64,000 nt of DNA from a virus. Its lineage: Duplodnaviria > Heunggongvirae > Uroviricota > Caudoviricetes. Both the position numbers and the translations under genes were made by a program. The stretch covers positions 2,458-66,457 of the IMG/VR virus record IMGVR_UViG_3300031760_000013, one strand, 5' to 3'. Of the stretch, positions 9,567 through 50,200 are shown in pieces. Below the pieces are notes generated by a model. That model saw nothing but the letters and a program-made list of their open reading frames with translations. It was not told where the DNA came from and did no database searches. Position 1 is the stretch's first letter. Every line of letters starts with the position of its first letter.

Positions 9567-12500
9567 TTAAAACAGCTGTCTGTACGATTTCATCCTGAAA
9601 TATCCGTTTTTGTCTCGCTCGTACGAAGTACAGTATATTATGTCGCCCTTACCTACTTTGGCATGCTCATAATCCCTGTTGTAAATCGTAAACCGGCTTT
9701 CAATACCGCTACCGATTGACTTCGTTGTGATTGAGTAACCGAACTGCTTGCCGTCTTTCTTTCTTCTGACTGGGTAGATGTCTGTAATGTAGAGCTTACG
9801 TCTGTCCTCTTCTCTACCAGACACATAACCTACATACCCCATCACGTCGTAGAAATTCCTGACTTTCAACAGATCACTCAGATCTTCCAGGTGTGCAGCT
9901 TTGATCGCGTCCTCGATCTCTCTCAGGATTTCTCGTGTGTCGAGCTGCGTATAATTCTTAGATTCCTTTCCAGATTTCGTGAAATCGACGGAATGGCGTT
10001 TGACAATTTCCTCGATATGTGTATTCTTGACTTTCTCTTTGGAGATTTGTTTCGCCTCGCCCTTCTTGAACGTGTCGTAGAACATATCCGTTATGCGAAG
10101 AAGCTCCCGCTGGTTCCCAAAATCGGAGAAGAAATCCAGCTTAATTAAGATATCAAGCTGCCGTGTGTTCATGTGCGTCTTCTGATCTATATCAAACAAC
10201 AGATCGCAAAATCTATTGTACTGGTTATTGTGTGCGAGCTCGTAAAGCTCTTCGGCGATCGCGGCGTTCATAAATTTTACAGATGTGAGACCTTTCGCAA
10301 TAATGTTTTTGTCTTCATCGTAGAAGTACTTGTCTCTGGAAAGCCCCCACTTCGGGTTTGTTACGGCAATTCCGACCTTATGTGCGTATTTCGTAATCTC
10401 TGCCGTCTTGTCGGTATTGTCTTGGAATATATTCAGTGCAGCAGTTAAGAACTGTAGCGGGTGATAGTACCTCAAGTACCCACAAATATACCCAATACAT
10501 GAGTAGCTGTCTGAATGGTTCCACGAAAAGGCGTACGCTGATGCGTCAAGGATAACCTGCAAGAACGGTTTAATAACTTTCTCGCATTCTTCCTCTGACA
10601 TCCCATAGTTCTCAATACAGTAAGCTACGAACCGCTTTTCGATTTCTGGCAACAACTGCTCGGTGCCTTTCTTTTTCGCGATACCTCTGCGGACAAGGTC
10701 GCTCTCAGCGGCTGAATAGCCACAGAACTTTACAAGGAACTGCATTATGGTTTCCTGCATAGCGATTCTCCCGGCTTCTGGGGCAAGAAAATCATTCAGC
10801 GCATCAAAACCATTATCGTAAAATTCCCCTCTCGCAACACTGTCTCGGAAACTTGCACATGCCGGACGGATCAAGCCGTTACCGAACGACATCCATTTGA
10901 TCATTGAGAAATTAGGGATTCTTGATCTGGCTTTTTCAAGTGTCTTTTCCGACATGAATTCTCTTAGGTATGCCTGAGCACTATTAGATTCCCATTGGAA
11001 TATCAGCGTTGTGTCTTTTCGAATGCTGTCCCATACGGCCATATCTTCTAGGTCTGTGTTGTCCGGTGTTAACCTCTCAATGCCAAGCATTTTGCACGTA
11101 TCGTTAATCACACCTATATTGTCGAGCCCTAGGATATCAAGCTTCACGTACATCTGATCATCAAGTTCCTTCATGTTTATCATGGAAACCGGATAATCTG
11201 ATGTTGATATACTGCAAAGCCCCATCATTTCATCTATTGGAAGGTCGCTGATCAACACCCCACTAGGATGTGTACCGATTGATACAATCGTACCGTCAAC
11301 TATATCGGCATACCGAAATACTTCCGGCCACTTCTTTCGTGCATTTTCAACGTCCCGATCAACTTCTTTGCTGATTTCGTTTGAAAGATCTAGGTAGTTG
11401 ATTTTCTCATCGTCTTTATATAAAGCTCTGCATACATCACGCACTGCGCCCTTCGTCGCGATTGTGTTGAATGTGATGATTTCTGCAGAGTTGATTGTCG
11501 GAAGCCCCATTTTATCCTTCAACAAGAACTCTTTTATCCTGTCTCGATCCGCACCTGCGTAGTCTGTGTCTATATCGGCGTTTGTTACTCGAGCGGGGTT
11601 CATAAATCTGAAGAAGTTTAGATTAAACTTGAGGCTATCCATCTGCGTTATACCAAGAATGTAGGCAATCATACTTCCAGAGACAGAGCCACGGCTGTAC
11701 CCGCACTGAATACCGTTTTTCTTTTCCCATTCACGTAAGTAAGTCTGCATCAGCATAAAGTCGATTGACTTTGTGGCCTTGTACACTTCAAACTCTTCAT
11801 CGATTACTTTGTCGAGCTCTTCTCGTGTGTGATTTTTAAGCGCATATGGGTGTTTTACCAATGCATCATCAATCTTTTTGCGGAAAGTTTGCTCTGGGTT
11901 GTCATAAATGTGCGGATATTTCGTGCCACAATCCAGTTTGAATTCTTCGACCATATCGGCAAGTACATTCGTGTTGCGAATTGCCTCCATGTACACATTT
12001 TCTTCTAACGAACCCTGTTTTTTATAAGCTTCTACCAACTCATCGTATGTTTTGAACTTTAAATCCCAGAGTTCCTCGCCGTCGAAGTGTATGTTTTTGG
12101 AAAGCTGTAGTATGCTGCGCCCTTTTTCGTGTTCTTCATTCAATACGTGTGTATCTGTACCGGCGATTAATGGGATTGATGTACTCTGACTAAGCGCTGT
12201 AAGCTTCTCATTGTATACGATCTGTTTCTCATCCATGTGATGACCAATTTCAAAGAAACACCTGCCCCTGTTTCGAAGCATAAAATCCAAAAATCGCTCA
12301 CGTACTTCTTCGTCGCCTTTACCGAAAACACCGCCGACACAAGCGGTTGTTATTATAATGTTATCGGTCGTAGCAAACAGTTCATCGAATGAAATTCTCG
12401 GTACATAATAAAAGTGGTTGTCTTTTCTGTTGAAACTTTGTGTTATTAGCTTATTAAGCTCACGGAACCCATCATAATTTCTGGCGATAAGGCAACAGTG

Positions 12501-12761
12501 ATAGTTGTCTCGAACTTTTTCATCAAGCGATGCGGTGAGGTAAGCCTCGATCGCGTGGATATATTTCATCCCAGCAGCTTCAATGGCGTTCTTCTTATGC
12601 CACCACTCGAACACCGAGCCATGCTCACTAAACGCCAGCGCCTTCATACCACATTCTTGGGCTCGTTTTATGTATTCGCCGTATTTTGTTACTGAGTCTA
12701 CGTTTGTAACTCCGTTAGAAAGGTCACTGTGCAAATGATAAACTACATAATTTTCAATCAA
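9567..12761 (-). CDS. dnaE: DNA polymerase III alpha subunit-like replicative polymerase (DnaE family, N-terminal PHP domain)
   Basis: 1064 aa. N-terminus VYHLHSDLSNGVTNVDSVTKYGEYIKRAQECGMKALAFSEHGSVFEW is a PHP-domain start. Length and architecture match C-family polymerases. Confidence 0.8.
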   Translation of the reverse strand: MIENYVVYHLHSDLSNGVTNVDSVTKYGEYIKRAQECGMKALAFSEHGSVFEWWHKKNAIEAAGMKYIHAIEAYLTASLDEKVRDNYHCCLIARNYDGFRELNKLITQSFNRKDNHFYYVPRISFDELFATTDNIIITTACVGGVFGKGDEEVRERFLDFMLRNRGRCFFEIGHHMDEKQIVYNEKLTALSQSTSIPLIAGTDTHVLNEEHEKGRSILQLSKNIHFDGEELWDLKFKTYDELVEAYKKQGSLEENVYMEAIRNTNVLADMVEEFKLDCGTKYPHIYDNPEQTFRKKIDDALVKHPYALKNHTREELDKVIDEEFEVYKATKSIDFMLMQTYLREWEKKNGIQCGYSRGSVSGSMIAYILGITQMDSLKFNLNFFRFMNPARVTNADIDTDYAGADRDRIKEFLLKDKMGLPTINSAEIITFNTIATKGAVRDVCRALYKDDEKINYLDLSNEISKEVDRDVENARKKWPEVFRYADIVDGTIVSIGTHPSGVLISDLPIDEMMGLCSISTSDYPVSMINMKELDDQMYVKLDILGLDNIGVINDTCKMLGIERLTPDNTDLEDMAVWDSIRKDTTLIFQWESNSAQAYLREFMSEKTLEKARSRIPNFSMIKWMSFGNGLIRPACASFRDSVARGEFYDNGFDALNDFLAPEAGRIAMQETIMQFLVKFCGYSAAESDLVRRGIAKKKGTEQLLPEIEKRFVAYCIENYGMSEEECEKVIKPFLQVILDASAYAFSWNHSDSYSCIGYICGYLRYYHPLQFLTAALNIFQDNTDKTAEITKYAHKVGIAVTNPKWGLSRDKYFYDEDKNIIAKGLTSVKFMNAAIAEELYELAHNNQYNRFCDLLFDIDQKTHMNTRQLDILIKLDFFSDFGNQRELLRITDMFYDTFKKGEAKQISKEKVKNTHIEEIVKRHSVDFTKSGKESKNYTQLDTREILREIEDAIKAAHLEDLSDLLKVRNFYDVMGYVGYVSGREEDRRKLYITDIYPVRRKKDGKQFGYSITTKSIGSGIESRFTIYNRDYEHAKVGKGDIIYCTSYERDKNGYFRMKSYRQLF

Positions 12762-13150
12762 CTATCACCTTCTTCCTGTTTAAATTCCCCTAAGAACTCA
12801 TCCAGCTCTTCTGATTTCCATGATTCTGTAACGGCGTCTCTCTGTTCTAAGATTTCCTTAATTTTCGGTGCATTCAGTGGCCTTAACTCCTCCGAGTAAA
12901 CTTCGGCTATGCTGTGTGGCCTCGTACTTGGAATGCCCCAAAACTGTCCATAATTAGCATGTCCTGGTAATATCGTCCTATTCGCGTAGAGGTCACCCCA
13001 AAAAGCGCTAGCGTCGTAATCTGGTGTAGTTCGCGTTACAGATGATGTCCATACATTGCTAGGAGATTCTGTAGCTAATTTATTTGCCCAAGCTTTTAAT
13101 TCTTCGGTAAAAAGTTTTTCGTCGAATTGAATACCAAGATTATCGCTCAT
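12758..13150 (-). CDS. hypothetical protein with C-terminal acidic EELDEFLGEF tail
   Basis: 130 aa; start/stop overlap (ATGA) with neighbours; C-terminus matches the recurrent W.S..LD.FL..F family motif. Confidence 0.45.
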   Translation of the reverse strand: MSDNLGIQFDEKLFTEELKAWANKLATESPSNVWTSSVTRTTPDYDASAFWGDLYANRTILPGHANYGQFWGIPSTRPHSIAEVYSEELRPLNAPKIKEILEQRDAVTESWKSEELDEFLGEFKQEEGDS

Positions 13151-14139
13151 CTTAACCTCCTTCTATGTAGATACAATGTTTTGAACACATCAAGCCCTTT
13201 GTCTACCGGCGAATCTTTGCTGTCTAGTAGCCCATCTTTGTCGTAGATATAGCTTACATTCACATACCTTTTGAGTTTGTTGATGTTCTTATCCTGAGTT
13301 ATGTCAACATCTTTGTCGAGCGCAAATGTCACTTTAACTCCAAGTTTTGCCAGGATTTTCATCTGGTTCACTGATAAATGTGATGTTAATATGGCTGCTG
13401 TACAATGAATCCCCCATGTATCTGCGAGCAAAACGCTCTTGCAGCCTTCAAAAATGATCACTTCCCCAGCTTTTTTGATCGCTTCCATGTTATCAGACAG
13501 CGCGAATAAGGTATTAATCGTGCCAAAACTGAAGTAGTAGCAGTACTTACGCTCACCTTTCTCTTTCCAGTTTGGTGCGGTGGCTCTTCCGCCGACGTTT
13601 ATGATCTTCCCGTTCAAATCTCGTACTGGATACACCAATCTGTCCGCAAATCCATCGTAATAGACTTGGAACTTGTCCAAAGTTTCTCTTGAGATGCCTT
13701 CATTTTCCCAGATTGCAAGCTTGTCAGCACGTTTTTCGTACCTTTCCATGTAATTATCGGGCAAAATCTTGACTTTTGACTCTTTCTGTGTACTTTTTGG
13801 CTTCTGATACTTCTTACAAACTAGTGTAGCAGACATTTTCTCGTATGGCGTGGCAATTTCCCCGTCAATTCCGGCATATTCTTTGATTTTTTGCACTGCT
13901 TCTGCGCTTGTGCAATTAAAGTATGCTTTTATAAACGTAAATAGGTTGCCGCCACCCTTACTACTGCTGTAATCGTACCAAAATGGAGGACTCTTCTTAA
14001 CTGAGAACGACGGTGTATTCTCTGGCGGATATGTGAATGGAGAAATCCCCCAAAACTCTCCGTTTTTTTCTTCTAAATCAACAAACTGCCCTATATACTC
14101 CACAATATCTATGGAATTTATAATTTCCTCGAGTTCCAT
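13147..14139 (-). CDS. DnaG-like DNA primase (TOPRIM domain; degenerate zinc-binding domain)
   Basis: N-terminal region has the primase zinc-finger layout (TPSFSV....GGGNLFTF) but Ser/Tyr replace the Cys residues. Later IIFEGCKSVLLADTWGIH...ALDKDVD matches TOPRIM. Start placed at Met41 (RBS GGAGTGA) to avoid overlap with dnaB. Confidence 0.55.
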   Translation of the reverse strand: MELEEIINSIDIVEYIGQFVDLEEKNGEFWGISPFTYPPENTPSFSVKKSPPFWYDYSSSKGGGNLFTFIKAYFNCTSAEAVQKIKEYAGIDGEIATPYEKMSATLVCKKYQKPKSTQKESKVKILPDNYMERYEKRADKLAIWENEGISRETLDKFQVYYDGFADRLVYPVRDLNGKIINVGGRATAPNWKEKGERKYCYYFSFGTINTLFALSDNMEAIKKAGEVIIFEGCKSVLLADTWGIHCTAAILTSHLSVNQMKILAKLGVKVTFALDKDVDITQDKNINKLKRYVNVSYIYDKDGLLDSKDSPVDKGLDVFKTLYLHRRRLR

Positions 14140-14152
14140 ATTGTCACTCCGC

Positions 14153-15496
14153 TTAGAAAGGTTCAGTAAGCTGGTGTTGTTTCTCGGCTTGTGCGTATTT
14201 GCAGGTTGATCCGTCAAAACGGAAGTCGATCCACTGGTCTTCTGACATCTGTTCCCCATTTCTGTTAAAGATTACACGAATTTTCTTAGTTGCACCCGTC
14301 CCATCAGTCTCAACTTCTGCGAGATCCTTGTCTGAAATTGCGACAACTGTACTCATTGATCTCGCTATTCTTGCACTATCCGCGATTTTCCCAGTAGATG
14401 TTGCTTGGGCAGCTGTAAGCGCTGCGATGCCGAGTTCCCCGGCGATTTTGTTCTTTAATACGTCAGAGACGTTACCAAGGTCCGCGTAAACCGCGAAGCC
14501 TTCTGACTTTGTATTGTCAGCCTTAAGATAGTCTACAACGATGCAGTCAATATCGATCTGATGTTTCGCTTTTTTCGCCGTGATATACAGCGGGTCAGCT
14601 TTTAAGACTGGCATATAAATATGTATGAACTTTTGTTGCTTTAACCAGTCTATTTGTTCTCTGATCGATGCTTCTTCCTCCTCTGTAAGCGCTGCACCAT
14701 TTCTAATTTTCCAGAATTGAATTCCGGTCAAGTGAGAAAGTATTCGCATTGTAAATAATTCATCAGATATCTCTGAGTCTACGTACAAAACGCTTTTCCC
14801 TTTCTTCAGCATTGAAACAGTGATGGTTAACAGCATTGCAGATTTACCAGCTTTCGGGCCGCCAGTGAAACACACACACTCACCAGGTTCGAGAACTACA
14901 TAATCATTCAAAAGCGGAAATGGGAAGCTGATTGCCTTTGTTTCACCACGCTGGCGAGCTTTTATATGCTCCCATGTACTTTCAACTATCTCAGAATACA
15001 ATGGCATACTGTTTGTGCTAGAGTAGCTAGCCATAACGTCGTCCACGCTGTCATAAATTTCCTTCTGAACGTCGTCAATTTTTAAATCTTTACACTTTTG
15101 GATACATCTTTCCAGACACTTACAAGCATCTCTTCGGAACGCACAATCAATGACATTCCCAGCGAGCATTTCATACTCTTCATACGAATTTCTTGCCAGC
15201 GTGTCACTCATATCGATTAATCCGTTTAGTTTATCGACTGTAAGGAAGTCAAGATAACCCTTTGTCTCATCGGAGGAACCAAGTGCCTCTCGGATATTGT
15301 AGGCATCAACTGTCTGCACATTCCTCTGGGCAAGTTCTCTTATGGCTGTGTATGTATACTCGTTTTCCTTATCTGTAAAATGCTTTGGCAAAAGGTTCTC
15401 TGCTCTGAAGTAAAAATCTGGGTGATGTATTAACGTCGCAATAACGCCAGCCTCACTTTCAAGACTGTTAATGTCTTCTACACGCATTGTTATCAC
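14153..15496 (-). CDS. dnaB: replicative DNA helicase (DnaB-like)
   Basis: 447 aa. DnaB N-terminal domain, then Walker A FTGGPKAGKSAMLL and RecA-like core motifs. Confidence 0.75.
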   Translation of the reverse strand: MITMRVEDINSLESEAGVIATLIHHPDFYFRAENLLPKHFTDKENEYTYTAIRELAQRNVQTVDAYNIREALGSSDETKGYLDFLTVDKLNGLIDMSDTLARNSYEEYEMLAGNVIDCAFRRDACKCLERCIQKCKDLKIDDVQKEIYDSVDDVMASYSSTNSMPLYSEIVESTWEHIKARQRGETKAISFPFPLLNDYVVLEPGECVCFTGGPKAGKSAMLLTITVSMLKKGKSVLYVDSEISDELFTMRILSHLTGIQFWKIRNGAALTEEEEASIREQIDWLKQQKFIHIYMPVLKADPLYITAKKAKHQIDIDCIVVDYLKADNTKSEGFAVYADLGNVSDVLKNKIAGELGIAALTAAQATSTGKIADSARIARSMSTVVAISDKDLAEVETDGTGATKKIRVIFNRNGEQMSEDQWIDFRFDGSTCKYAQAEKQHQLTEPF

Positions 15497-17245: not shown

Positions 17246-17473
17246 TCAGTAAAGTTTTGCGTTACGATACATCTCCTTTAATTCCTCAATTTTCGCAGCC
17301 TGTTTCTTATATTTTTCGGTATCGGCGATATAAGCTGCCTCGTCTCGGAGATATTTCATCAGCTCAGCTAACTCAGTCATCTGCGCTGGAGTCATGACAA
17401 TTTCCTCCGGGTATATTCTGTGCGGCAATGTGTATCTTTCAAGTAATTTATCTGGAAACATTATCGTACCCAC
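17246..17473 (-). CDS. hypothetical protein
   Basis: 75 aa ORF. Confidence 0.35.
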   Translation of the reverse strand: MGTIMFPDKLLERYTLPHRIYPEEIVMTPAQMTELAELMKYLRDEAAYIADTEKYKKQAAKIEELKEMYRNAKLY

Positions 17474-17720
17474 TTAAAAACGTATCCAAGTCGTCCGAAT
17501 CCCAATTCTCTTCTTCCGGCGCATGGCACCAAAATAAACCATCGCTATCTGTTGATAGGTACTTATATATTTTTTGCGATCCATCATTCTTTGTGAACAT
17601 CATTCTAAAATGGGCACCGTCTTCATCGATACTCGTACAGATATACCAATGCCCTCCATTATCAAAAACTGTGTCCCCGATTTTGAAATGTTTCGCAAAA
17701 TAATCCTTCGCTTCTACCAT
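17448..17720 (-). CDS. small protein of the WDSxDLDxFL C-terminal-motif family
   Basis: 90 aa; TSIDEDG core and C-terminus NWDSDDLDTFLSGY; paralogous to 17724..17936. Confidence 0.45.
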   Translation of the reverse strand: MVEAKDYFAKHFKIGDTVFDNGGHWYICTSIDEDGAHFRMMFTKNDGSQKIYKYLSTDSDGLFWCHAPEEENWDSDDLDTFLSGYDNVSR

Positions 17721-17723
17721 TAA

Positions 17724-17936
17724 CTAGATTCCTCTGTCACTATAGAACTCCCCTAAAAACCTATCGAGATCGCAGGAATCCCAACGTTCTCCGTCGTTTT
17801 CAAAAGTAGATATATCTTCTTCGGTCGCATGTTCGAGATGTATATTATTCCCGTCTATACTTGTAACGACGTATGGTACTCCATCAGTGGATAGAATGTC
17901 TCCAATGCAGTAGCTGAAAAAGGTTCTTAGATCCAC
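17724..17936 (-). CDS. small protein of the WDSxDLDxFL C-terminal-motif family
   Basis: 70 aa; TSIDGNN core and C-terminus RWDSCDLDRFLGEF. Confidence 0.45.
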   Translation of the reverse strand: MDLRTFFSYCIGDILSTDGVPYVVTSIDGNNIHLEHATEEDISTFENDGERWDSCDLDRFLGEFYSDRGI

Positions 17937-20207: not shown

Positions 20208-21431
20208 CTATTCTGATGCTTTGAAGTTATATATTGGTCTGATTACTGAATCAATGTGTACAGTGGGGCCAATATTATTTACGATATCATCAACTCGTTT
20301 GTACGCCATAGGAGATTCATCGAGTGTACTAAGATTCACGGATGTCGTGTATATCCCCTCCATAGCTTGTTCGAATTCCTCCAACGGAATAGTCTCTTTA
20401 GCTTTAGAACGGCTCATAATTCGCCCAGCACCATGCGGAGCTGAATAGTTCCAATCTGGGTTACCTTTCCCAGTGCAGATTAAAGACCCATCTCTCATAT
20501 TGATAGGAATGAGGAGCTTCTCACCTCCACGAGCAGAAACCGCGCCCTTTCTCAATATCATGTATTCTGTATCAATATAGTTATGAATGGTCTCAAATTC
20601 TTCAACTGGTATCCAGTTCATATATTTACAAATCGTATCAGCAATTGCCTTTCGATTTAGGTGAGCAAACTGCTGTGCGATTCGCATATCGTGGATATAA
20701 TCATCAAACAGTTTCCCTTCGCACCAAGCCAATTCTTTTGGTGCAGCCGGATAATCTTTCTTAAGCTTTTTCAGAGCATCAGATATTTCTGACTGTTTCC
20801 CTTGTACTTTTAATGTTTCAATTACTTCTTTTCTGGCATCTTCAGTCGGGCCAGAATGCGACTTAGCAGCGAGGCGCTGGTAATGTGTGCAGATATCGAC
20901 CCCTAGATGCCGGCTACCAGTGTGAATAACAAGGTACACGTCCCCAGTATCATCATTTTTATCTAATTCAATAAAGTGATTTCCTCCACCAAGAGATCCC
21001 AGTGAAAGATATGCCCGGACCAGATCCGCATTATTCTTACAAACAAGGTCTTCAAGCTTAATATTTTTTGTTAAAGGATGTTGTTGAGTACGTATGCTCA
21101 TCCCAGATGTGACAATTGGCTCTGTCTCGTTGTAACCATGAAGTGCAGTATCTAATCTTTCGAAATCCAAGACTGATCCTTTTGAAAGCTTTACAGTCAA
21201 CATCCCACAACCAATATCTACGCCAACCAGATTAGGGCATATTTTGTCTGAAATAGTCATGGTAGTTCCGATTGTGCACCCAGCGCCTGCATGTATATCA
21301 GGCATCATGCGTATGGTTTGATTATGCGCATATGGTTGATTTGCCAGTTGGATAACTTGAGAAATAGCTTCAGGTTCAACCACGTCTGTATATATTTTTG
21401 CATTAGCGTACTTCCCTACTACTTCAAACAT
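20208..21431 (-). CDS. rtcB: RtcB-family 3'-phosphate/5'-OH RNA ligase
   Basis: 407 aa. MPDIHAGAGCTIGTTM and GGGNHFIELD match the conserved RtcB metal-binding and His-rich motifs. Confidence 0.8.
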   Translation of the reverse strand: MFEVVGKYANAKIYTDVVEPEAISQVIQLANQPYAHNQTIRMMPDIHAGAGCTIGTTMTISDKICPNLVGVDIGCGMLTVKLSKGSVLDFERLDTALHGYNETEPIVTSGMSIRTQQHPLTKNIKLEDLVCKNNADLVRAYLSLGSLGGGNHFIELDKNDDTGDVYLVIHTGSRHLGVDICTHYQRLAAKSHSGPTEDARKEVIETLKVQGKQSEISDALKKLKKDYPAAPKELAWCEGKLFDDYIHDMRIAQQFAHLNRKAIADTICKYMNWIPVEEFETIHNYIDTEYMILRKGAVSARGGEKLLIPINMRDGSLICTGKGNPDWNYSAPHGAGRIMSRSKAKETIPLEEFEQAMEGIYTTSVNLSTLDESPMAYKRVDDIVNNIGPTVHIDSVIRPIYNFKASE

Positions 21432-23418: not shown

Positions 23419-24372
23419 TTATTCCATGTGTACAATTTTCCAACGTTCGTAATCTCTTTTAAAATCCTCAACAATTTGTCGTTTTTTGGAATCGATCGTG
23501 TTTCGACCAGAGCCAAGCTTATAAACTTTCCCGTCTATATACTCTGCGGCAGCATCTTCAAAACATGGCGCTTTACCCATTGCCTCAGAAATATAAGTCC
23601 TATAAAAAAGCCCGGACAGCCACACTCTGTAGTAACTTAACGATTGCAGTTCGCCCATTTCCTTGAACGCCATGCGTTTTCTCTTTGAAAACTCAACGCG
23701 AAAAGCCCTGATTGTTGGTATAGCTTTAACACCACTTAGTAGAAACGTCCTATCAAAACGCTGTACTACTATACGTTTTGAATAGTTTGGGTGTGCATAC
23801 ACAAAAGAATCAAGTGTCGATGCAGCGGAAAAGTCCGCAAAAGCCTCCTTATATATTCTGTATGATTTGTTGTCAAAACAAACAGCCATGTTTTTCAAGT
23901 CAACATCTGTGCGTCTGACTAATACCGTTTTTTCTTCTTTTACACCAGAGAATGCCAGCCAATAGTAACATCTGTATATACAATCCACAGTTTGCTCATC
24001 GGATGGCTTAAAGTAAAAATCTAAATATTTCTTCAGCTCTTCTGGGGTTGAGACAGTTAAGCGACGCATCTCGTCTGACATCTCATTGCTGTACATAATA
24101 CTTTCTGCGCATGTTTTTACACCAATATTCTTTTCGCACCAGCGGAGATAATCTTTCAGTGTGCTTAACACGCCCATTGTTGATCTAGACCTCAATGTGT
24201 AAGCACTATCCACCACCGCGCTCAGCTCCTGTTTGCTCATTTCGTAAAGGTCTCGTCCGGCTGCATCTTCATATTTCCCAAACGACTCAAACAAACGATT
24301 GAGATTCCTTGCGGTCATTTTGTTGTTTGTTTTCTGTTCGATATACCTACTCTTGAGTTGAATATTGTACAT
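23419..24372 (-). CDS. hypothetical protein, paralog of 50187..51137 (N-terminal region resembles a recombinase core-binding/SAM-like DNA-binding domain)
   Basis: 317 aa. Same length and parallel motifs as the 316-aa protein at 50187..51137 (LKDYLRWCEKNIG versus VNSYLKWCDRNRV). Strong AGGAGG RBS. Confidence 0.45.
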   Translation of the reverse strand: MYNIQLKSRYIEQKTNNKMTARNLNRLFESFGKYEDAAGRDLYEMSKQELSAVVDSAYTLRSRSTMGVLSTLKDYLRWCEKNIGVKTCAESIMYSNEMSDEMRRLTVSTPEELKKYLDFYFKPSDEQTVDCIYRCYYWLAFSGVKEEKTVLVRRTDVDLKNMAVCFDNKSYRIYKEAFADFSAASTLDSFVYAHPNYSKRIVVQRFDRTFLLSGVKAIPTIRAFRVEFSKRKRMAFKEMGELQSLSYYRVWLSGLFYRTYISEAMGKAPCFEDAAAEYIDGKVYKLGSGRNTIDSKKRQIVEDFKRDYERWKIVHME

Positions 24373-24399: not shown

Positions 24400-24834
24400 T
24401 CAAACAGTCGCCGAGTTAAGCGCACTTGCCTTCTTCCAGATAGAATACACGAGATGAGGCGGAATAAACGAGATCATAGATGTAGCCAGAATATAAGCCT
24501 CTGCAATATTTTTCATGTAGGAACTTGGCATTGTCGTAATATAACGTCCTAGCTTGTTTTTAGATATGCATTCTGGGTTCTCGCAAAGAACCATGCTGTC
24601 TTTCTTCAACCCGGAATCGCTGGCTTTTACAACAACATGCGTCGGTTGTGAAGACTTCTTGATCTGGCTTGTGAGCGGTAACACAATAACATTAGGACTA
24701 TGCAAATTCCCAAGGTTATTTTGGATTATCAGGCCAGGACGAATCCCGCTCTGTTCGCTGCCATTACCGGCAAATGTGATCATATAAACATCACCAATAC
24801 GCGGAGTGTGGCCGTCTTTGTTTTGGAAGTTCAC
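24400..24834 (-). CDS. MazF/PemK-family endoribonuclease toxin-like protein
   Basis: 144 aa. GDVYMITFAGNGSEQSGIRPGLII...NVIVLPLTSQ...PTHVVV reproduces the PemK/MazF fold motifs, including the conserved Arg (SEQSGIRP) and Thr (PLTSQ). No antitoxin-sized ORF is adjacent. Confidence 0.65.
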   Translation of the reverse strand: MNFQNKDGHTPRIGDVYMITFAGNGSEQSGIRPGLIIQNNLGNLHSPNVIVLPLTSQIKKSSQPTHVVVKASDSGLKKDSMVLCENPECISKNKLGRYITTMPSSYMKNIAEAYILATSMISFIPPHLVYSIWKKASALNSATV

Positions 24835-29482: not shown

Positions 29483-30355
29483 TTAAAACAGCAAGCTTGC
29501 GGTGCTATCCCATTTCGTGTAGAGGTGGCAATTCGGTCTGAGAATTAAATATTTCAGGTCAGATTTCGGTACCGTCGACATACAGTCGTCGTCAAGCACT
29601 GTGGAAATCCCGTCCACATCATATCTCGTCTGCCCGAATTCCAGGACTTCAAGGGCTCGCCCATTATTTTTGATGTATTCTCTTATCGAATCAATCAAAT
29701 TGTCCGCCGCTGTATGGTTTGCTATCCACTTTGCTTGTTCACTCTCGCCACTAGCATACAGAATTCTAAACGTAATCGCATCGGCCTTCATCATCTTTGC
29801 GTAGATGAAAAATTCCTGCGGTGTATCGATCATGTAATCCCACGCATCCGTTAGATTTACAGAAAGCCGAAGATTCATACCGACATTCTTAATTGTGTGG
29901 CACAGTTCCATGATGTTTATCGGCGCACCCTTATGGCCTGTATATACTGCGTTCGTCTCGTCATCTGGAGCACTTATCGATAAGCTTACTGACGTTACTC
30001 CAACCTGATCTCTAAGGAAAACCAAGTAAGCTTCGTCAAGAAAACACCCTGCTGTCTGGATTGAAACCCATCTAAACGGCTGCTCAAGTGAACGGTTCAT
30101 GTCTCCAAACGTAGCAAGGAAGGCCTTGTTCTGTGTCGGCTCGGCGTCGCCAGTCAGCATCACAGTATTGCAGTGGTTGTCTCTCGCAAATGCCATACGT
30201 TTCCGGTACTCTTGGAGTGCGAGAGAATATGCTGGGTTCGAAACGGCAATTTTATTTTTACCGTATTCTTCATGATGCTGTTTGCTTACACAAAAAGCAC
30301 AGTTATTTACACACTTTTCAGTTGGTACAACTATCGAAAGTGATTGAATATTCAC
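29483..30355 (-). CDS. radical SAM domain protein (subfamily unassigned)
   Basis: 290 aa. CVNNCAFC (CxxxCxxC) at residues 15-22 and MLTGDAEP (GGEP-like) further on. Confidence 0.6.
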   Translation of the reverse strand: MNIQSLSIVVPTEKCVNNCAFCVSKQHHEEYGKNKIAVSNPAYSLALQEYRKRMAFARDNHCNTVMLTGDAEPTQNKAFLATFGDMNRSLEQPFRWVSIQTAGCFLDEAYLVFLRDQVGVTSVSLSISAPDDETNAVYTGHKGAPINIMELCHTIKNVGMNLRLSVNLTDAWDYMIDTPQEFFIYAKMMKADAITFRILYASGESEQAKWIANHTAADNLIDSIREYIKNNGRALEVLEFGQTRYDVDGISTVLDDDCMSTVPKSDLKYLILRPNCHLYTKWDSTASLLF

Positions 30356-30368
30356 GCTATCACACTCC

Positions 30369-30689
30369 TTAATTTATCCATGTCGTTGTGTTCTTATGAA
30401 TGAAACCCGAAAAGAATTCTTCGAAACTACCATCGTCTTCTATATCTGCTATATCTGCATCGGTATCACAAGGTATAAGCATTTCGTCATTCCATAGATA
30501 TTCCCCGTTATCTCTATCAATGATGTACTCATGCCCTCCGCCGAGTGTCCTAAACTTTCGGATGATAGTAGCTTCTTCTCCGCGATACGATGACATTATT
30601 GCGTTACAACAAATTACGCCGTATCTTCCGCTCCTTATGTCTGGCCGTATTAAAACCCTTTCGCCAACATCAAACGCGTAATCTGCCAT
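30369..30689 (-). CDS. small protein, GDRV-barrel/WNDEM family with acidic C-terminal tail
   Basis: 106 aa; GERVLIRPDI, LWNDEMLIP and C-terminal EEFFSGF; paralog of 30670..30969 and 39301..39609. Confidence 0.45.
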   Translation of the reverse strand: MADYAFDVGERVLIRPDIRSGRYGVICCNAIMSSYRGEEATIIRKFRTLGGGHEYIIDRDNGEYLWNDEMLIPCDTDADIADIEDDGSFEEFFSGFIHKNTTTWIN

Positions 30690-30969
30690 CTATAAATTCC
30701 TCGTACAATAATTTGAAGTCCTCTTCGTCGTCTACATCTTCATATGGTACCTCGCAGAACATATCATCAGTCCATAACCATCCATTATCCTCAGCTATAT
30801 GATAACAATGTTTATTTTTACCTTTCTGTACACTTGCCAAGATTGTAACTTGTTTCCCGCAGAACTCTAGCATCCCTCTCGTTACGCCAATGTCGTTGTA
30901 GTACTTGCAAATATCAAGGTCATCTCTAACCATCGCGCGATCCCCGGGTCGATAGCACCAACTATCCAT
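30670..30969 (-). CDS. small protein, GDRV-barrel/WTDDM family
   Basis: 99 aa; GDRAMVRDDL, LWTDDMF and acidic C-terminus. Confidence 0.45.
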   Translation of the reverse strand: MDSWCYRPGDRAMVRDDLDICKYYNDIGVTRGMLEFCGKQVTILASVQKGKNKHCYHIAEDNGWLWTDDMFCEVPYEDVDDEEDFKLLYEEFIDGRLRV

Positions 30970-31243
30970 TAACAGCCTCCTTAGAAAATCCAGCTAAAAA
31001 TTCATCAAGATCGTCCGATTTGTCGTACTGGCCAGAATCATCATCGACGAGATAGAAGAAAGATTCTGGGTACCAGATGGTATCTCTATCAATCTTATAT
31101 TGATTCCACTGTTCAAGATCCCAGCTTTCTTGTGCAGCTATGATGGTGACGTCCGTCTCAACCAGATCTTCTCTGCCAAGGCCTTCCATCACATCGTACT
31201 TGCTAGCCTTAATCCTAACTACATCGCCACTGTTAAACTTCAT
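30962..31243 (-). CDS. small protein with C-terminal DDLDEFLAGF motif
   Basis: 93 aa; GDVVRIKASKYD N-terminus; C-terminal family motif. Confidence 0.45.
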   Translation of the reverse strand: MKFNSGDVVRIKASKYDVMEGLGREDLVETDVTIIAAQESWDLEQWNQYKIDRDTIWYPESFFYLVDDDSGQYDKSDDLDEFLAGFSKEAVNG

Positions 31244-38798: not shown

Positions 38799-38874
38799 TG
38801 GTACCGCTGGATGGAGTTGAACCATCGTCTTTGGCTTATAAGGCCACTGCTTCTAACCATTGAGCTACAGCGGC
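38799..38874 (-). tRNA. tRNA (anticodon loop CUUAUAA, so anticodon UAU, Ile-type), CCA encoded
   Basis: Minus-strand sequence GCCGCUGUAGCUCAAUGGUUAGAAGCAGUGGCCUUAUAAGCCAAAGACGAUGGUUCAACUCCAUCCAGCGGUACCA folds as a cloverleaf: a 7-bp acceptor stem with one G-U, a GG D-loop, T-arm GAUGG/UUCAACU/CCAUC and 3' CCA. The D-stem has one irregularity. Confidence 0.55.
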
Positions 38875-39300: not shown

Positions 39301-39609
39301 TTACCCACAAAGTAATTCACCCCACAAACTGTTAAATTCATCATCACTGATATCTGGTGGCGGTGAGCACGCTAACTCACTGAACATTTCGTCTGTCCAT
39401 CTGTAATTCCACATATCTACGCTTTCCCCGGAAGATACAAGATATTGGCCATTTAAATAATCAGAGATTTGAACTACTTTTCCTCTAAGCTTGCACATAT
39501 CATCAGTCGCACTATTACTAGCGCTATGGTCTTCCATGCTGTAATGCATACCTTCTATCAAGTCTTCTCTTACAATGACTCTATCGCCTATTTGGTATTT
39601 CATATTCAC
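39301..39609 (-). CDS. small protein, GDRV-barrel/WTDEM family
   Basis: 102 aa; GDRVIVREDL, RWTDEMF and C-terminal DDEFNSLWGEL. Confidence 0.45.
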   Translation of the reverse strand: MNMKYQIGDRVIVREDLIEGMHYSMEDHSASNSATDDMCKLRGKVVQISDYLNGQYLVSSGESVDMWNYRWTDEMFSELACSPPPDISDDEFNSLWGELLCG

Positions 39610-39812: not shown

Positions 39813-40313
39813 TCATTCCGTCAGAAATTCAAAGAATTCCTCATCTGAGAACACATCTTTAATCTCGGAATCGATAAGCCGGATACTGTCCCATGGTACA
39901 TTCCAACCATGTTTAACATCGCATTCTCCACCGCAAGAATGCCCGTTGATGTTTCTATCCCATCTTACGCCAATCCATTCCCCGCGGTCTTCGCTTTCAA
40001 GATAAACAATTGTTCCGCGGTCTCCGGCCCGTAAGTGTCCACCATCTAATTTAATTAAGCCAGAATACTCTACTCTGTCCCCAACTCTGAAGTCGTCGCA
40101 TATTCCCCTAAGTGAGTCTGGATGGAGGTACCAGCCGTGCTCGTCGTTACACCGGCCATCACATGTATGCCCTCGATGTATCGCCATGTCGAATTCGACT
40201 CCGATTGAGCCGCCACCAAAGGATACACTTACGACTGTTCCTCGATATCCCATTTGGATATCGCCAATTTTTACATCGCTGATGTATTCTACACGATCCC
40301 CAAGATCAAACAT
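39813..40313 (-). CDS. tandem-duplicated GDRV/HGW-domain protein with C-terminal SDEEFFEFL tail
   Basis: 166 aa. Two internal repeats, each GDRVEY...G.RGT.V...GV.....GH.C.G.C...HGW..P.DS. Confidence 0.45.
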   Translation of the reverse strand: MFDLGDRVEYISDVKIGDIQMGYRGTVVSVSFGGGSIGVEFDMAIHRGHTCDGRCNDEHGWYLHPDSLRGICDDFRVGDRVEYSGLIKLDGGHLRAGDRGTIVYLESEDRGEWIGVRWDRNINGHSCGGECDVKHGWNVPWDSIRLIDSEIKDVFSDEEFFEFLTE

Positions 40314-40321
40314 AATTTACC

Positions 40322-40639
40322 TCACAAACCTAAGAACAAGGTAAACTCATCGTCAGAGCATGCATCAAATTCTTCGGATTCCTGCAGTTTTTCCACGTTA
40401 TATTTGTTCGTATTCCAACCATGGCCTACTTCGCATGCCCCATCATTGGAATGCCCGTTCGGCAGTGCCTCATCCCATGCAATGTAAACCCATGTAATAT
40501 CTTCTGGGCAATCTTGCAAAACCGTCCCGGTCATACCGTACTTTAAATGACCGTTATCTTCGGCACGTTCGCTTACAAATATTATCCGGTCGCCCTTACG
40601 TAAAACTTGGCGTTCTCTATCATATTTACACATCTTCAT
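40322..40639 (-). CDS. GDRV/HGW-domain protein with C-terminal DDEFTLFLGL tail
   Basis: 105 aa; KGDRIIFV...GHSNDGACEVGHGWN; single copy of the repeat found in 39813..40313. Confidence 0.45.
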   Translation of the reverse strand: MKMCKYDRERQVLRKGDRIIFVSERAEDNGHLKYGMTGTVLQDCPEDITWVYIAWDEALPNGHSNDGACEVGHGWNTNKYNVEKLQESEEFDACSDDEFTLFLGL

Positions 40640-40974: not shown

Positions 40975-42129
40975 CTATCCAGCAAGATCCTCTTTAATCA
41001 GTTTCTTGATGCTCCCGCAACCAAGCTTCTCACCAAGATAACCAACCAGCTCGTCAATTTTTCTGCCTTCAACCATCTTGTAATAATTATAGAGCCCGTT
41101 CATAACTTGGATATCCTCCAAATCCCACGGATTCCCGTTCTGCCTATCTTTCACATAGTTTGTGAGCATCGCCTGAAATCTGCGCTTAGTTTTATGCCCA
41201 ATAGTTATTTCGTTCTGCCCGTTAAGACAGCATCCAAGCAGAAAGTTATGTCCAGAAGAAGAACCGTACCTTGTCTTTGCGGTATTGAGCTGGAACGGCG
41301 CATTAAATGTTGCAAGTGAGCTGATAATTTCCTGCTCGATTTTTCTGAAGTCGAAATCATACCGAGACGAAATGATAAAGTCATCGGCATATCTCGTATA
41401 CACGAAGCGCTGCTTATCGAAATCCCTGAGTTCCTTCGATAGCTTATAGTCGATTGGAATCATCATGATGTTGGTTATCAGCGGAGAGATCGGAGTGCCC
41501 TGCGGAAGCCCGCCATTCAGAATTGCTAACTCAAGAGCAGATTCCAAAGCACTTCTTCCTCTTTCGGTCTTAACCACTTCAGAAAACGGGTATACCATAG
41601 AGAACATCTGCATGATAAATTCCAGAGTTGTGCTACCAAAGAAGTCATGCAGGTCATATTTACAAAACCACTTGCTCTCATTTGACTGATGACGCTTCAC
41701 CGCATCAAGCGTAGACCGTTTCTTGATATACGCAAAAGCCGATGTGTGATACAGCGCCTTACAATCATTCTCAAAAATACCTTTCAGTGTTCTAAGTGCG
41801 CTCATCAAGTCGTCTTCCGGCGCATTAATCTCACGAAGGCCGCCAGATTTTTTAGGAATATAAAACTTATAGTATGATTCCTGCCTTGGCTTAGATTTAA
41901 TTCTAGCCACTACATCTGATGTGTTAAAAGCTTCGAGCTTGAGGATGATGCGTCCAATGCTTATACCAAGTTTTCTTTCTACCCTATCAGACACATACTC
42001 CATTTCATAAGTACGTGTGTTTGTAAGATTCTCATTGATTACGCCTGGCGTAGTCGATGTCTGGAAGAGAAACTCCTCCAAAGTCATCTGGTGATACGTC
42101 GGCGGCATCTTGACAACGACATATACCAT
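40975..42129 (-). CDS. reverse transcriptase (retron-type, no maturase/endonuclease domains)
   Basis: 384 aa. RT motifs YIPKKSGGLREI (motifs 1-2), LPQGTPISPLITNIMM (motif 4, QGxxxSP) and YTRYADDFII (motif 5, YADD). GGGAGG RBS. Confidence 0.85.
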   Translation of the reverse strand: MVYVVVKMPPTYHQMTLEEFLFQTSTTPGVINENLTNTRTYEMEYVSDRVERKLGISIGRIILKLEAFNTSDVVARIKSKPRQESYYKFYIPKKSGGLREINAPEDDLMSALRTLKGIFENDCKALYHTSAFAYIKKRSTLDAVKRHQSNESKWFCKYDLHDFFGSTTLEFIMQMFSMVYPFSEVVKTERGRSALESALELAILNGGLPQGTPISPLITNIMMIPIDYKLSKELRDFDKQRFVYTRYADDFIISSRYDFDFRKIEQEIISSLATFNAPFQLNTAKTRYGSSSGHNFLLGCCLNGQNEITIGHKTKRRFQAMLTNYVKDRQNGNPWDLEDIQVMNGLYNYYKMVEGRKIDELVGYLGEKLGCGSIKKLIKEDLAG

Positions 42130-42157
42130 CTTATGTTCCTCCCTATTAAACTGTTAT

Positions 42158-42480
42158 ATAACTGTAATCTACGTGTGTGTGCCTGCAGGAACCGGGACCG
42201 TCTTCCTGGATCTGGAGTTGTAGTCTGCTGGCGAGCTCGCCATTACTGAGTAGCTTGTCATCGAGAAAGGAGCCTTGTTTTCCAAGATTTCGTATTTCTG
42301 ATGGCTAAGATTTTGCTACTAGGTCTTGATAAGACTCGATGACTGTGACAGCACGAGCAGCTGCTGGGTCATCGCTGCGGCGGAAGGCGTGCCCAGCCAT
42401 CGTTCACGCCTCTGCTCAAATCGTTACTTCCGCTTACAGCAAGAAGCACCATATTACTATGGTCATTGCATTACAGTTAT
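42158..42480 (-). ncRNA. candidate retron msr/msd-like non-coding RNA upstream of the RT
   Basis: A 323-nt non-coding region bounded by 11-bp inverted repeats ataactgtaat (42158-42168) and attacagttat (42470-42480). The downstream repeat lies 28 nt from the RT start, the a1/a2 geometry expected of a retron. The interior has a perfect palindrome tggcgagctcgcca and GC-rich pseudoknot-like stems. Confidence 0.35.
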
Positions 42481-42497
42481 GAAATTAGATTTCTAAA

Positions 42498-42752
42498 TTA
42501 TTCGTTTTCCAAAATCTCAAGCAGATGTTTCCCGTGATCGGTGATTTTCATATGCTTGAGCATAGATTCGCAGTGCTCGCTCTTGAAGAATTCTTTGATT
42601 TCCTTTTTGGAATAACCCCATTCATCGCGAGTTATCCGCGAATCCTTTCCCCTATTGCAAAGGTCGCGGTAATCGTCAGCTGCCTTCTGCAAAATTGCCA
42701 TGGCAAGCTGAGCTGCACCGCGACCCCGCAACACCTCTAACGATTCTGGCAT
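42498..42752 (-). CDS. hypothetical protein
   Basis: 84 aa; between the E1-like gene and the RT leader. Confidence 0.35.
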   Translation of the reverse strand: MPESLEVLRGRGAAQLAMAILQKAADDYRDLCNRGKDSRITRDEWGYSKKEIKEFFKSEHCESMLKHMKITDHGKHLLEILENE

Positions 42753-43423
42753 CAGAATACGTCCAGAATCCCACTAAAGCCATCGATCTGGCCGAACTTC
42801 CAAATACCTTCACCCTTAACAAACTTTATGTAATTGTTCACACACATCGCACAGATGAGGCGGACAGTTGTCACAACTCCGAGTGTAATTCCGCACGCGC
42901 TCACTGGAGTCTCGTTTTTTGCCTCTTCGTGTGAAAACTGCATAGAGTTCAGAAGGTTCTGGCGTGACTGGTAATCACTCCAGTCTGCCCCATACATCTG
43001 CGCTCCCGTTAGAGCCGTTCTCACGTCGAACACCGCTTTTAAGAAAGGGTGATCCATGTGCTGCTCAACAAATTTCCTGCGCAGTTCTATATTGTCCGGG
43101 CAAAGGAACACATACCCCGATAGCATTTTCCCCTGCCACCCTTCCGGTTTGATCTTGATCGAATCTTTTGCTTCCGGATTAATTTCCAGAATAAGATCCC
43201 GCAGCGCCTCGACCTTAAGCCTTCCGATATCCTGCTGTCTGAACATCTGGTTCACGATGTTGTGCTTTTCGACCTTGTCGAAATCATAAAGCGTCATCTT
43301 TGTAATGCCGCACCGAGCAAGATTTTCCGCGATTGTCGAGCCGACTGACCCGCAGCCGATTATATGAATCATCGCGTCATCTTTTTCCGGCTGGAAGAAT
43401 TCATAGCTTTTACTGAGATCCAT
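42752..43423 (-). CDS. ThiF/MoeB-family E1-like adenylyltransferase (minimal adenylation domain)
   Basis: 223 aa. HIIGCGSVGSTIAENLARCGITKMTLYDFDKVEKHNIVNQMF reproduces the E1 Rossmann GxGxxG plus the D.D.VE..N(L)xRQ nucleotide-binding signature. Confidence 0.6.
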   Translation of the reverse strand: MDLSKSYEFFQPEKDDAMIHIIGCGSVGSTIAENLARCGITKMTLYDFDKVEKHNIVNQMFRQQDIGRLKVEALRDLILEINPEAKDSIKIKPEGWQGKMLSGYVFLCPDNIELRRKFVEQHMDHPFLKAVFDVRTALTGAQMYGADWSDYQSRQNLLNSMQFSHEEAKNETPVSACGITLGVVTTVRLICAMCVNNYIKFVKGEGIWKFGQIDGFSGILDVF

Positions 43424-43424
43424 A

Positions 43425-43916
43425 TTACCCTCCGATCATTTCATTTGCTTCACGCAAACCATTACCAAGAGCTTCGAGCTCTTCCTCCGTAAACCTCTGC
43501 ACACAATCCCTGCTTTCGGAAAGCATATCCATCACCGTGCATTCTTCTTCCTCGACCTCGAAAGGATCGTACGGTTCAAATGGCTCTTCCTCTTCGTCAT
43601 CTTCCCAGGCGTCGTTTTCATCCGCCCAATCACGAACTTCGCCTTTCCAGTAATCAAAATCCGCCGGACGCCATTCGCCATAATATTCGTCATACTCATA
43701 GTAATCATAACCACTATTGTCACGATACCTATCAAGTATATTGAACAAATCTTGCCACGTGTTATCTCTGGCAAGATCGACAAGACTTTCATCGATAATT
43801 TCGTCACGCGAATCTGCAGAGATTACATCCTCAAGAAGATAGCAGCCGACATCGTCGCAGAACTGATTCAGGTCATAGAAATCATTAACGTCATCGATAA
43901 ATGTAGAACGATTCAT
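43425..43916 (-). CDS. highly acidic protein ending in Gly-Gly (candidate ubiquitin-like/sulfur-carrier-like partner of the E1-like enzyme)
   Basis: 163 aa with very Asp/Glu/Tyr-rich repeats (DYYEYDEYYGEW, EDDEEEEPFEPYDPFEVEEEE). C-terminus ...NEMIGG followed by the stop codon. AGGAGG RBS. Beta-grasp fold not verifiable by eye. Confidence 0.4.
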   Translation of the reverse strand: MNRSTFIDDVNDFYDLNQFCDDVGCYLLEDVISADSRDEIIDESLVDLARDNTWQDLFNILDRYRDNSGYDYYEYDEYYGEWRPADFDYWKGEVRDWADENDAWEDDEEEEPFEPYDPFEVEEEECTVMDMLSESRDCVQRFTEEELEALGNGLREANEMIGG

Positions 43917-49942: not shown

Positions 49943-50200
49943 ATGATATTGTTATTTAAAGACCAGACTTATTTAGCAATCACATCAACCAAGTGGATTA
50001 ATAAAGAAGAGGCTGACATAATCAGCCTCAACGATTTACAGAAATCCAAAGAATTCCACGGGAAATCAGTGGAGTCTGCCGGTATTTGTTTTTACGATTC
50101 CAGTTATTATCTCGTTGTGGAATTTACAAAAACCCTCGAGATTCATAAATGGTGCGGTAATTGCATCGTGAAAACCATTTGGAGAATTATTCCAGATTGA
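49943..50200 (+). CDS. hypothetical protein
   Basis: 85 aa plus-strand ORF with AAGGAG RBS; isolated plus-strand gene in a minus-strand block. Confidence 0.35.
   Translation: MILLFKDQTYLAITSTKWINKEEADIISLNDLQKSKEFHGKSVESAGICFYDSSYYLVVEFTKTLEIHKWCGNCIVKTIWRIIPD

Follow-up and report, generated by a model that had tools for sequence, protein, structure and literature searches.

An acidic, predicted helical C-terminal motif common to small proteins of a metagenomic phage: a candidate docking peptide

Why should a phage place nearly the same short peptide at the ends of small proteins whose bodies differ? This question is raised by a stretch of 64,000 nucleotides (called the window below) from the tailed-phage record IMGVR_UViG_3300031760_000013 of IMG/VR (positions 2,458 to 66,457), in which an earlier note, made from the letters alone, listed nine small proteins with a common acidic tail and suggested that they dock with it onto one common partner. 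Here we analyzed the tail, its carriers, their relatives and the gene neighbourhood computationally. In our reading, which is given a probability of about 0.55, the tail is a short linear motif by which all its carriers would dock onto a single hub protein. The first part of the tail would be a flexible acidic Ser/Asp/Glu linker, and the second part an amphipathic helix of 8-9 residues with hydrophobic residues at i, i+3, i+4 and often i+7 and usually a closing Gly. It would be borne by several unrelated early proteins, most of them small SH3-like barrels and one a largely disordered protein of the primase and Pol III alpha operon.

All nine open reading frames (ORFs) were recovered on the minus strand, with the C-termini that had been quoted for them. 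Each ends in an acidic Ser/Asp/Glu stretch followed by Phi-x-x-Phi-Phi(-x-G), Phi being a hydrophobic residue, and this motif lies 0-10 residues before the stop codon; another Phi three residues after the core and a Gly are frequent additions. The tail ends are SEELDEFLGEF, SDDLDTFLSGY, SCDLDRFLGEF, SDDLDEFLAGF, GSFEEFFSGF, LLYEEFIDG, SLWGELLCG, SDEEFFEFL and SDDEFTLFLGL, and the consensus is [ST]-[DE]-[DE]-(x)-Phi-x-x-[FL]-[LFI]-x-G. The description as a shared C-terminal tail is right in that the motif stands close to the end in all nine proteins; it needs correction in that the motif is not the true C-terminal tip, since 0-10 variable residues follow it.

The enrichment of the motif was computed over 110 likely genes (18,278 aa) against 2000 shuffles, either of the whole protein or of the tail only. 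The strict pattern acid-acid-(x)-[LF]xx[FL][LFWY] within the last 25 residues was found in 7 proteins, with 0.26 expected from whole-protein and 0.44 from tail-only shuffling, and [DE]L[DE]xFL was found four times, each time near a C-terminus (0.02-0.03 expected); none of the 2000 shuffles reached either observed count. A looser pattern was found in 11 of the 110 genes against 4.1 expected. Comparable gene blocks of other related phages (26-35 genes each) gave 0-1 strict and 0-3 loose matches.

The bodies were compared by blastp, Pfam, PHROGs and profile-profile comparison and fall in four classes, between which no sequence relationship was detectable. The carriers are all on the minus strand and are named here by their first coordinate. 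Class E is the mostly disordered 12758 (12758..13150, 130 aa), which has its tail WKSEELDEFLGEF at residues 111-123 (nt 12782-12820) and gave no match to Pfam, PHROG, NCBIfam or PDB; its gene overlaps those of DnaG primase (13147-14139) and Pol III alpha (9567-12761), between which it lies. Class A is formed by 17448 (17448..17720, 90 aa; tail WDSDDLDTFLSGY, residues 73-85, nt 17466-17504) and 17724 (17724..17936, 70 aa; tail WDSCDLDRFLGEF, residues 52-64, nt 17745-17783). These two are paralogues (blastp E 1e-3) and both contain the TSID core that had been assigned to this subfamily; the tail of 17724 is kept by its orthologue in L009, a relative of the phage.

Class B/D includes the three proteins with the GDRV..VR.D N-terminus and the W(N/T)D(E/D)M(F/L) motif, which were seen as the earlier note had described them. 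These are 30369 (30369..30689, 106 aa, WNDEML; tail EDDGSFEEFFSGF, residues 84-96, nt 30402-30440; phrog_7488, E 1e-8), 30670 (30670..30969, 99 aa, WTDDMF; tail EEDFKLLYEEFIDG, residues 82-95, nt 30685-30726; phrog_7488 and phrog_17705, E 1e-8) and 39301 (39301..39609, about 100 aa, WTDEMF; tail SDDEFNSLWGELLCG, residues 88-102, nt 39304-39348), the true start of the last being probably the ATG at MKYQ. Their matches to phrog_7488 (E about 1e-8) cover only positions 1-70 of 144, which is the N-terminal domain and not the tail. The tail is kept in the orthologues P0001, P0008 and P0009 of 30369 and P0002-P0007 of 30670, and in the orthologues P0010-P0016 and P0018 of 39301 it is constant except for one D/N position, the body being variable. 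The fourth member is the SH3-like 30962 (30962..31243, 93 aa; tail SDDLDEFLAGF, residues 76-86, nt 30986-31018), a remote homologue of the GDRV/WxDxM family over its entire length (hhalign probability 94%, E 1e-7), so that the three tandem genes at 30369-31243 form one paralogous cluster. The copy number of this cluster varies, as four B/D copies are present at 18592-19511 of the relative L005 against three in the window; the extra paralogue of L005 (a 119.5-kb relative) has 102 aa and ends EDFKLFYEEFIHGRLRIQ, and the L005 orthologue of 30962 (P0043) is truncated to 58 aa.

Class C comprises 39813 and 40322, which carry the GDRV...GHxCxGxCxxxHGW domain twice and once, respectively, as had been read from the letters. 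The protein 39813 (39813..40313, 166 aa) has a single tail, SDEEFFEFLTE, at its extreme end (residues 156-166, nt 39816-39848), and its first domain has none. It passes the gathering threshold of Pfam SH3_12 (PF18129; 26.2 bits) with 54.0 bits (E 1.7e-14) in two stretches, and it also matches phrog_22041. The single-domain 40322 (40322..40639, 105 aa; tail SDDEFTLFLGL, residues 95-105, nt 40325-40357) is 41% identical to the second domain of 39813 and reaches 23.4 bits, just under the same threshold.

When the families of 30962, 17448/17724 and 12758 were compared by hhalign, the alignment was confined to 13-16 tail columns, and the SH3_12 family gave nothing significant against the other classes. 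Sequence searches of the tail proteins in PDB and NCBIfam gave no matches, nor did Foldseek against viral models at E <= 0.001. The claim of otherwise different bodies is accordingly sound for several classes without sequence relationship and too wide for 30369, 30670, 30962 and 39301, which are one family; the SH3-like model of 30962 and the SH3_12 matches of 39813 and 40322 also make the bodies less different than had been supposed. With four body classes only, the nine carriers are not nine independent events, and paralogy reduces the count.

The tails are under stronger constraint than the bodies. In five orthologue sets the mean pairwise identity was 0.90-0.96 in the tail and 0.74-0.78 in the upstream body. 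Among twelve syntenic orthologues of 12758 the segment W.S.ELDEFL.EFK is invariant and the middle of the protein gains or loses segments; the gene lies in the relatives always between DnaG and Pol III alpha and overlaps both. It is the most widely kept carrier among the relatives, including phages without the B family (no B-family match was found on a 104-kb relative contig). In thirteen orthologues of 30962, LDEFLAGF is invariant and the residues after it alternate between SKEAVNG and (Y/C)NGGC; as these end residues are swapped and LDEFLAGF stays fixed, the constraint acts on the motif and not on the terminal carboxylate. Tails with identical amino acids use different codons, which excludes recent copying at the DNA level, and recent gene conversion of the tails was ruled out on the same ground.

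The tail can also be parted from the body. Distant IMG/VR homologues of the B-type domain share the first ~75 residues and then continue in long unrelated extensions or a short basic end, so the tail is separable from the GDRV/WxDxM body. In L009 the slot of 17448 is occupied by an unrelated 77-aa gene ending PIDEFLSQF. The conservation in homologues on which the earlier note had staked its idea is found in close relatives and in distant SH3_12-type homologues, and is missing from the distant GDRV/WxDxM ones.

AlphaFold2 models gave a predicted shape for two carriers. The protein 12758 is predicted to be mostly disordered (mean pLDDT 42), with helices at residues 11-28, 94-105 and 113-122, the last being the tail; 30962 is predicted as an SH3-like barrel (residues 1-65), a low-confidence stretch (67-75) and a helix (76-84). 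The linker before the tail is variable in length and predicted to be disordered. In agreement with a helical shape, the sequence pattern of the tail also occurs within globular NTF2-like proteins. A second conserved element, MSDNLGxQFDEKLFTEELKAW, is present in residues 1-28 of 12758 (predicted helical in 11-28) and is separated from the tail by the variable, disordered middle; such a layout, judged from sequence and model, is as expected of a tether that may bind two partners.

The spread of the motif beyond this phage depends on the carrier. DNA pattern scans of IMG/VR and a metagenome collection showed that W.S..LD.FL..[FY] at a C-terminus is restricted to this phage clade; every other match was an internal helix, belonging to NTF2-like proteins, a 433-aa enzyme family or Hsp20. 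More was found with a domain profile of SH3_12 type, the kind of search that the earlier note had suggested, which gave 1,931 clusters (E <= 0.001) among 1.84 billion representatives. Among the best 150 of these cluster matches there are 84 single-domain proteins, of which 70 show an acid and PhixxPhiPhi within their last 22 residues, where shuffled tails would give 23. Their tail profile is [ST][DE][DE][DE]-Phi-x-x-[LF]-[LIF]-[GS]-G, beginning about 23 residues past the HGW motif. By these counts the SH3_12-type tail is old, family-wide and inherited by descent, not a local addition. None of the SH3_12-type proteins examined carries a name, and the clusters are almost exclusively metagenomic; members were not found by tblastn in cultured phages and plasmids, and Pfam gave no informative fusion partner on long multi-domain relatives. 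Scans of IMG/VR that started from the radical SAM neighbour or from the SH3_12 alignment gave no matches.

A distant syntenic relative, L090 (IMG/VR contig UViG_3300006155_000005), shares ThiF, reverse transcriptase, metallophosphatase and a 497-aa protein with the window at 31-58% identity and was used for comparing tails between genomes. It encodes two SH3_12-type proteins, ending DIDENSFLGVAL and DIEEDSFMRMLGG, and has tails on three body types that are absent from the window and gave no Pfam match: a paralogue pair of 118 and 104 aa (ends EISDAGFEAIISAGG and DISDESFAAIIGR), an acidic protein of 146 aa (end DIETDSFIAVLGRAS) and a protein of 81 aa (end DFESLLNILTRGG). In anchored 12-mers, tails of different body classes within one genome are 27% identical, against 14.5% for tails between genomes and 17% for tails that share a body class but come from different genomes; the difference within versus between genomes was reached in only 2 of 5000 permutations of the labels. 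Such likeness within a genome would be expected if the tails co-evolve with a single partner particular to each genome.

The window may hold a tenth, weak carrier of this kind, a very acidic protein of 163 aa ending GG (43425..43916, minus strand), with TEEELEALGNGL at residues 143-154 (nt 43455-43490), directly upstream of a ThiF/E1-like gene. By eye its N-terminus resembles that of the 146-aa protein of L090; blastp at E 1e-3 gave no match between the two.

On these findings the docking of all copies on one partner is proposed. The hydrophobic face of every tail would insert in the same groove of one hub protein, the acidic linker would touch a basic rim of that groove, and the variable bodies would be cargo delivered to the hub or would recruit or block other targets. 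The unrelated bodies, the conservation, the differing codons, the separately predicted helix and the recurrence on further bodies all fit the common partner that had been suggested; the binding itself, and its being the same for all copies, we infer. For the host-takeover or anti-defence role that the earlier note had offered as a possibility, the findings speak neither for nor against. The hub may be a replisome component, a doubtful first guess made because 12758 is the most widely kept carrier and lies between primase and polymerase, and because more distant relatives lacking it have a primase-helicase with an acidic end just before the polymerase gene. A second guess, also doubtful, is a protease or unfoldase of Clp type, in view of the ClpP gene of the phage.

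Several points weigh against this docking model. No hub partner was found by the present computational analysis. Confidence in the AlphaFold2 models is low to moderate (mean pLDDT 42 and 66, about 49 in the tail helix), so that the absence of packing of the tail on the body is weak evidence. Part of the sharing is common descent, as 30369, 30670, 30962 and 39301 are one family and the SH3_12 tail is family-wide; all the SH3-like bodies may even derive from one ancestral barrel-plus-tail protein. The test of tail variants was made on two genomes with 12-mers anchored by hand, and one window tail, that of 30369 (DIEDDGSF), resembles the L090 variant. The regular expressions used for the enrichment were written after the data were seen.

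The strongest competitor we consider unlikely, at perhaps a third of the weight of the docking model. The tail would be the inherited C-terminal helix of an ancestral fold of SH3-like barrel plus helix, packing on the barrel or self-associating, and its spread would be divergence from one ancestor. Four of the nine proteins are demonstrably one family, 30962 is modelled as an SH3-like barrel, 39813 and 40322 match Pfam SH3_12, and a tail that is family-wide, as in the SH3_12-type group, would suit an element integral to the domain. An integral helix does not, however, explain tails on proteins with neither an SH3-family match nor a GD.V start, namely 12758, the 77-aa protein of L009 and the 104/118-, 146- and 81-aa proteins of L090. 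Nor does it agree with a predicted disordered linker of varying length, with tail-less members among the distant GDRV/WxDxM proteins, with the first domain of 39813 lacking a tail, or with tail variants that track the genome and not the body.

It is also conceivable, and still less probable, that the tail mimics a replisome peptide (SSB tip, clamp-binding motif or T7-type acidic tail), which would make the carriers competitors at the replication fork of the host or the phage. The position of 12758 between primase and Pol III alpha, overlapping both in all relatives, suits this idea, and it is the only replisome connection of any carrier. Distant relatives without 12758 have a fused primase-helicase that ends in an acidic stretch and (D/N)EVFG directly upstream of the polymerase gene. 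No homology was found between 12758 and the primase-helicase C-termini, and 12758 as a split-off C-terminus of that protein was rejected. The internal LEDLSDLL of Pol III alpha was likewise rejected as a native ligand or clamp motif copied by the tails: it stands some 50 residues beyond the point that aligns with the clamp motif of E. coli and is not conserved in the relatives (L023 and L025).

The beta-clamp-binding motif, QL[SD]LF or QLxLxL, is short and often C-terminal, and many unrelated proteins compete with it for one pocket. The phage tails are alike in being short hydrophobic peptides common to otherwise unrelated proteins, but they have Asp/Glu instead of Gln, and their spacing is helical and not extended. 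Neither Q-L-[SD]-L-F nor Q-L-x-L-x-[LF] was found in any tail; EFTLF of 40322 alone comes close to QL[SD]LF, and in 8 of the 9 tails a polar residue, as at position 4 of ELDEF, DLDTF, DLDRF and DLDEF (all without Gln), stands where the clamp motif needs Leu or Met.

In phage T7 the tails of gp2.5 and gp4 both dock on the same basic patches of the T7 DNA polymerase. The likeness is that different proteins of one phage share an acidic tail with an aromatic residue and, in T7, have one common partner, and that one of the present carriers, 12758, belongs to the replisome operon; a strongly acidic C-terminal segment with an aromatic residue is present in 9 of 9 tails here. The T7 tails, of which the acidic one of gp2.5 has been described (PMC10359462), differ in ending in a terminal Phe and lacking the PhixxPhiPhi helix. 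None of the present tails has an aromatic residue in last place (the final one is Gly in 39301, Glu in 39813 and Leu in 40322), and here there are at least nine carriers, mostly SH3-like.

The C-terminal tip of SSB (SSB-Ct, DDDIPF) is an interaction hub peptide (PMC5872125, PMC10164576). As in the phage tail, a disordered linker ends in an acidic stretch and then hydrophobic or aromatic residues, and SSB-Ct docks on partners as is proposed for the tail; unlike the tail, SSB-Ct is one peptide of one protein with many partners, whereas here many proteins carry the peptide for presumably one partner. The acidic run with [IL]-P-F as last residues, by which SSB-Ct is defined, is absent from the tails, which have no Pro-Phe end and no free terminal Phe, are predicted to be helical (PhixxPhiPhi) and are followed by 0-10 variable residues. 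The bodies are SH3-like or disordered and not OB-folds, and the real SSB of the phage (16310-16678) has its own canonical end, DDGELPF. The likeness to SSB tails or clamp-binding peptides drawn in the earlier note was thus not borne out by the sequence definitions of either.

An improbable reading, slightly less favoured than replisome mimicry, is a proteolysis signal or protease-adaptor tail that would deliver the carriers, or cargo bound to the SH3-like bodies, to the phage ClpP (7870-8508) or to host ClpX/ClpC. In SspB, a short peptide at the C-terminus, set off by a flexible linker, is what docks to ClpX. The carriers match such adaptors in their build of a body, a disordered linker and a short C-terminal peptide, an arrangement that is also predicted in the AlphaFold2 model of 30962; in addition ClpP is encoded by the phage and its relatives, and the carriers are placed among minus-strand genes of replication and nucleotide metabolism. 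In sequence, though, the tails have no similarity to SspB and are unlike the basic-hydrophobic LRVVK that binds ClpX or the LAA ends of ssrA type, their true C-terminal residues are variable, and no unfoldase is encoded in the window. This idea is in any case one form of the docking model and does not compete with it.

Chance, or the composition of acidic phage C-termini, is very improbable, for although many small window proteins have acidic ends without the motif and the patterns were defined post hoc, the observed counts were not reached even with tail-only shuffles and the motif is conserved in orthologues and across the 1,931 SH3_12-type clusters.

The docking model leaves the tail as a peptide that may work like SSB tips, T7 tails, clamp motifs or SspB tails and by sequence is a member of none of them. 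For the body only, a likeness of fold (7-19% identity) was found to Pfam SH3_12 (the SH3-like domain of Xrn1), to the SH3 repeats of Mind bomb and to PDB 2heq (YorP of prophage SPbeta), none of which is described with a tail. Shared docking peptides are a known principle; this motif and its carriers are new within the sources searched, as no description of the motif, the carriers or a partner was found in Pfam, PHROGs, NCBIfam, PDB or the literature searched. A wider and more tentative reading is that the tail is an address label in a large group of gut Firmicutes phages. Diversifying binder modules (SH3-like and others, more than 1,900 clusters) would be plugged by one co-evolving peptide into a single hub, e.g. 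the replisome or a protease, as a modular adaptor system which redirects host or phage machinery, with the tail variant tuned to each hub.

Nine genes of a single phage carry the motif, and so do most single-domain members of a protein family with about 1,900 clusters. A peptide of 12-15 residues is an easy handle, and naming the hub would be a first hint at function for many early genes of large gut phages that are now called "hypothetical". Should the hub belong to the replisome or to a protease, we would learn how that machine is organised or hijacked by SPbeta-like phages.

The window is contained in a 113-kb metagenomic contig (ENA ERZ27256908 k141_4604274). From position 1 to about 53 kb its genes are encoded by the minus strand and thereafter by the plus strand, with the strand switch near 54 kb, and the protein identities were taken from precomputed Pfam matches on called genes. 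By gene content the phage is an uncultured SPbeta-like gut phage, because it encodes a YonO-like single-chain RNA polymerase (56691-59291, plus strand; PF05183), a YonV_C protein (55083-56330, plus) and two MrpR_N-type proteins (50187-51137 and 23419-24372, both minus); a YonG_N protein is also encoded. DnaB is encoded at 14153-15496, and the other identities are ERF, RtcB, PhoH, NrdD, a Band_7 protein, ThiF and reverse transcriptase.

By sequence this SPbeta-like phage of metagenomes is remote from those of Bacillus. A nucleotide-level search of cultured phages with the window gave no match; for Pol III alpha the nearest cultured phages are at 44-47% identity, with the hosts Clostridioides, Thomasclavelia and Bacillus. 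A host assignment from GTDB was rejected, since the sole matches were bins labelled Bacteroidales, Paludibacter and Ruminococcus, which are unreliable for a phage contig.

Among the early genes there are also a PemK-type toxin homologue (24400-24834), an RtcB RNA ligase (20208-21431) and a radical SAM protein (29483-30355), all on the minus strand, and a tRNA-Ile with anticodon TAT (38799-38874, minus) is present in the gene-poor stretch at 38.3-39.2 kb. In the 119.5-kb relative L009 the DnaB region and Pol III alpha are interrupted (L009 6660-9012 and 10399-14788): a LAGLIDADG-like ORF of 312 aa divides Pol III alpha into parts of 690 and 356 aa, and additional ORFs follow a shortened DnaB. 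These insertions, which the window does not have, look to be of homing-endonuclease or intein type.

Beside the SH3_12 genes a reverse transcriptase (RT) of retron type is encoded at 40975-42497 (minus; 384 aa, Pfam RVT_1), with retron RT_II-A as best PADLOC match (E 6.5e-46). It is preceded by a conserved non-coding stretch of 370 nt, without a match in Rfam, whose RNA fold is closed by an 11-bp terminal stem (AUAACUGUAAU / AUUACAGUUAU) resembling the a1/a2 stem known from retrons; the fold has a z-score of only -1.95. The window, L002, L005 and L090 share the gene order RT, small ORF, SH3_12 tail proteins. A diversity-generating retroelement as source of the SH3_12 family was rejected, as there are no template/variable repeats in 38.5-47.5 kb and the enzyme is of retron type. 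At 42752-43916 (minus) there is a ThiF/E1-like protein of 223 aa (Pfam ThiF, partial PADLOC E1-E2 matches), preceded by the very acidic 163-aa protein with its Gly-Gly end, a pair reminiscent of a ubiquitin-like protein beside its activating enzyme. The pair is grouped with uncharacterised proteins of 334 and 495 aa, and this block is conserved in relatives.

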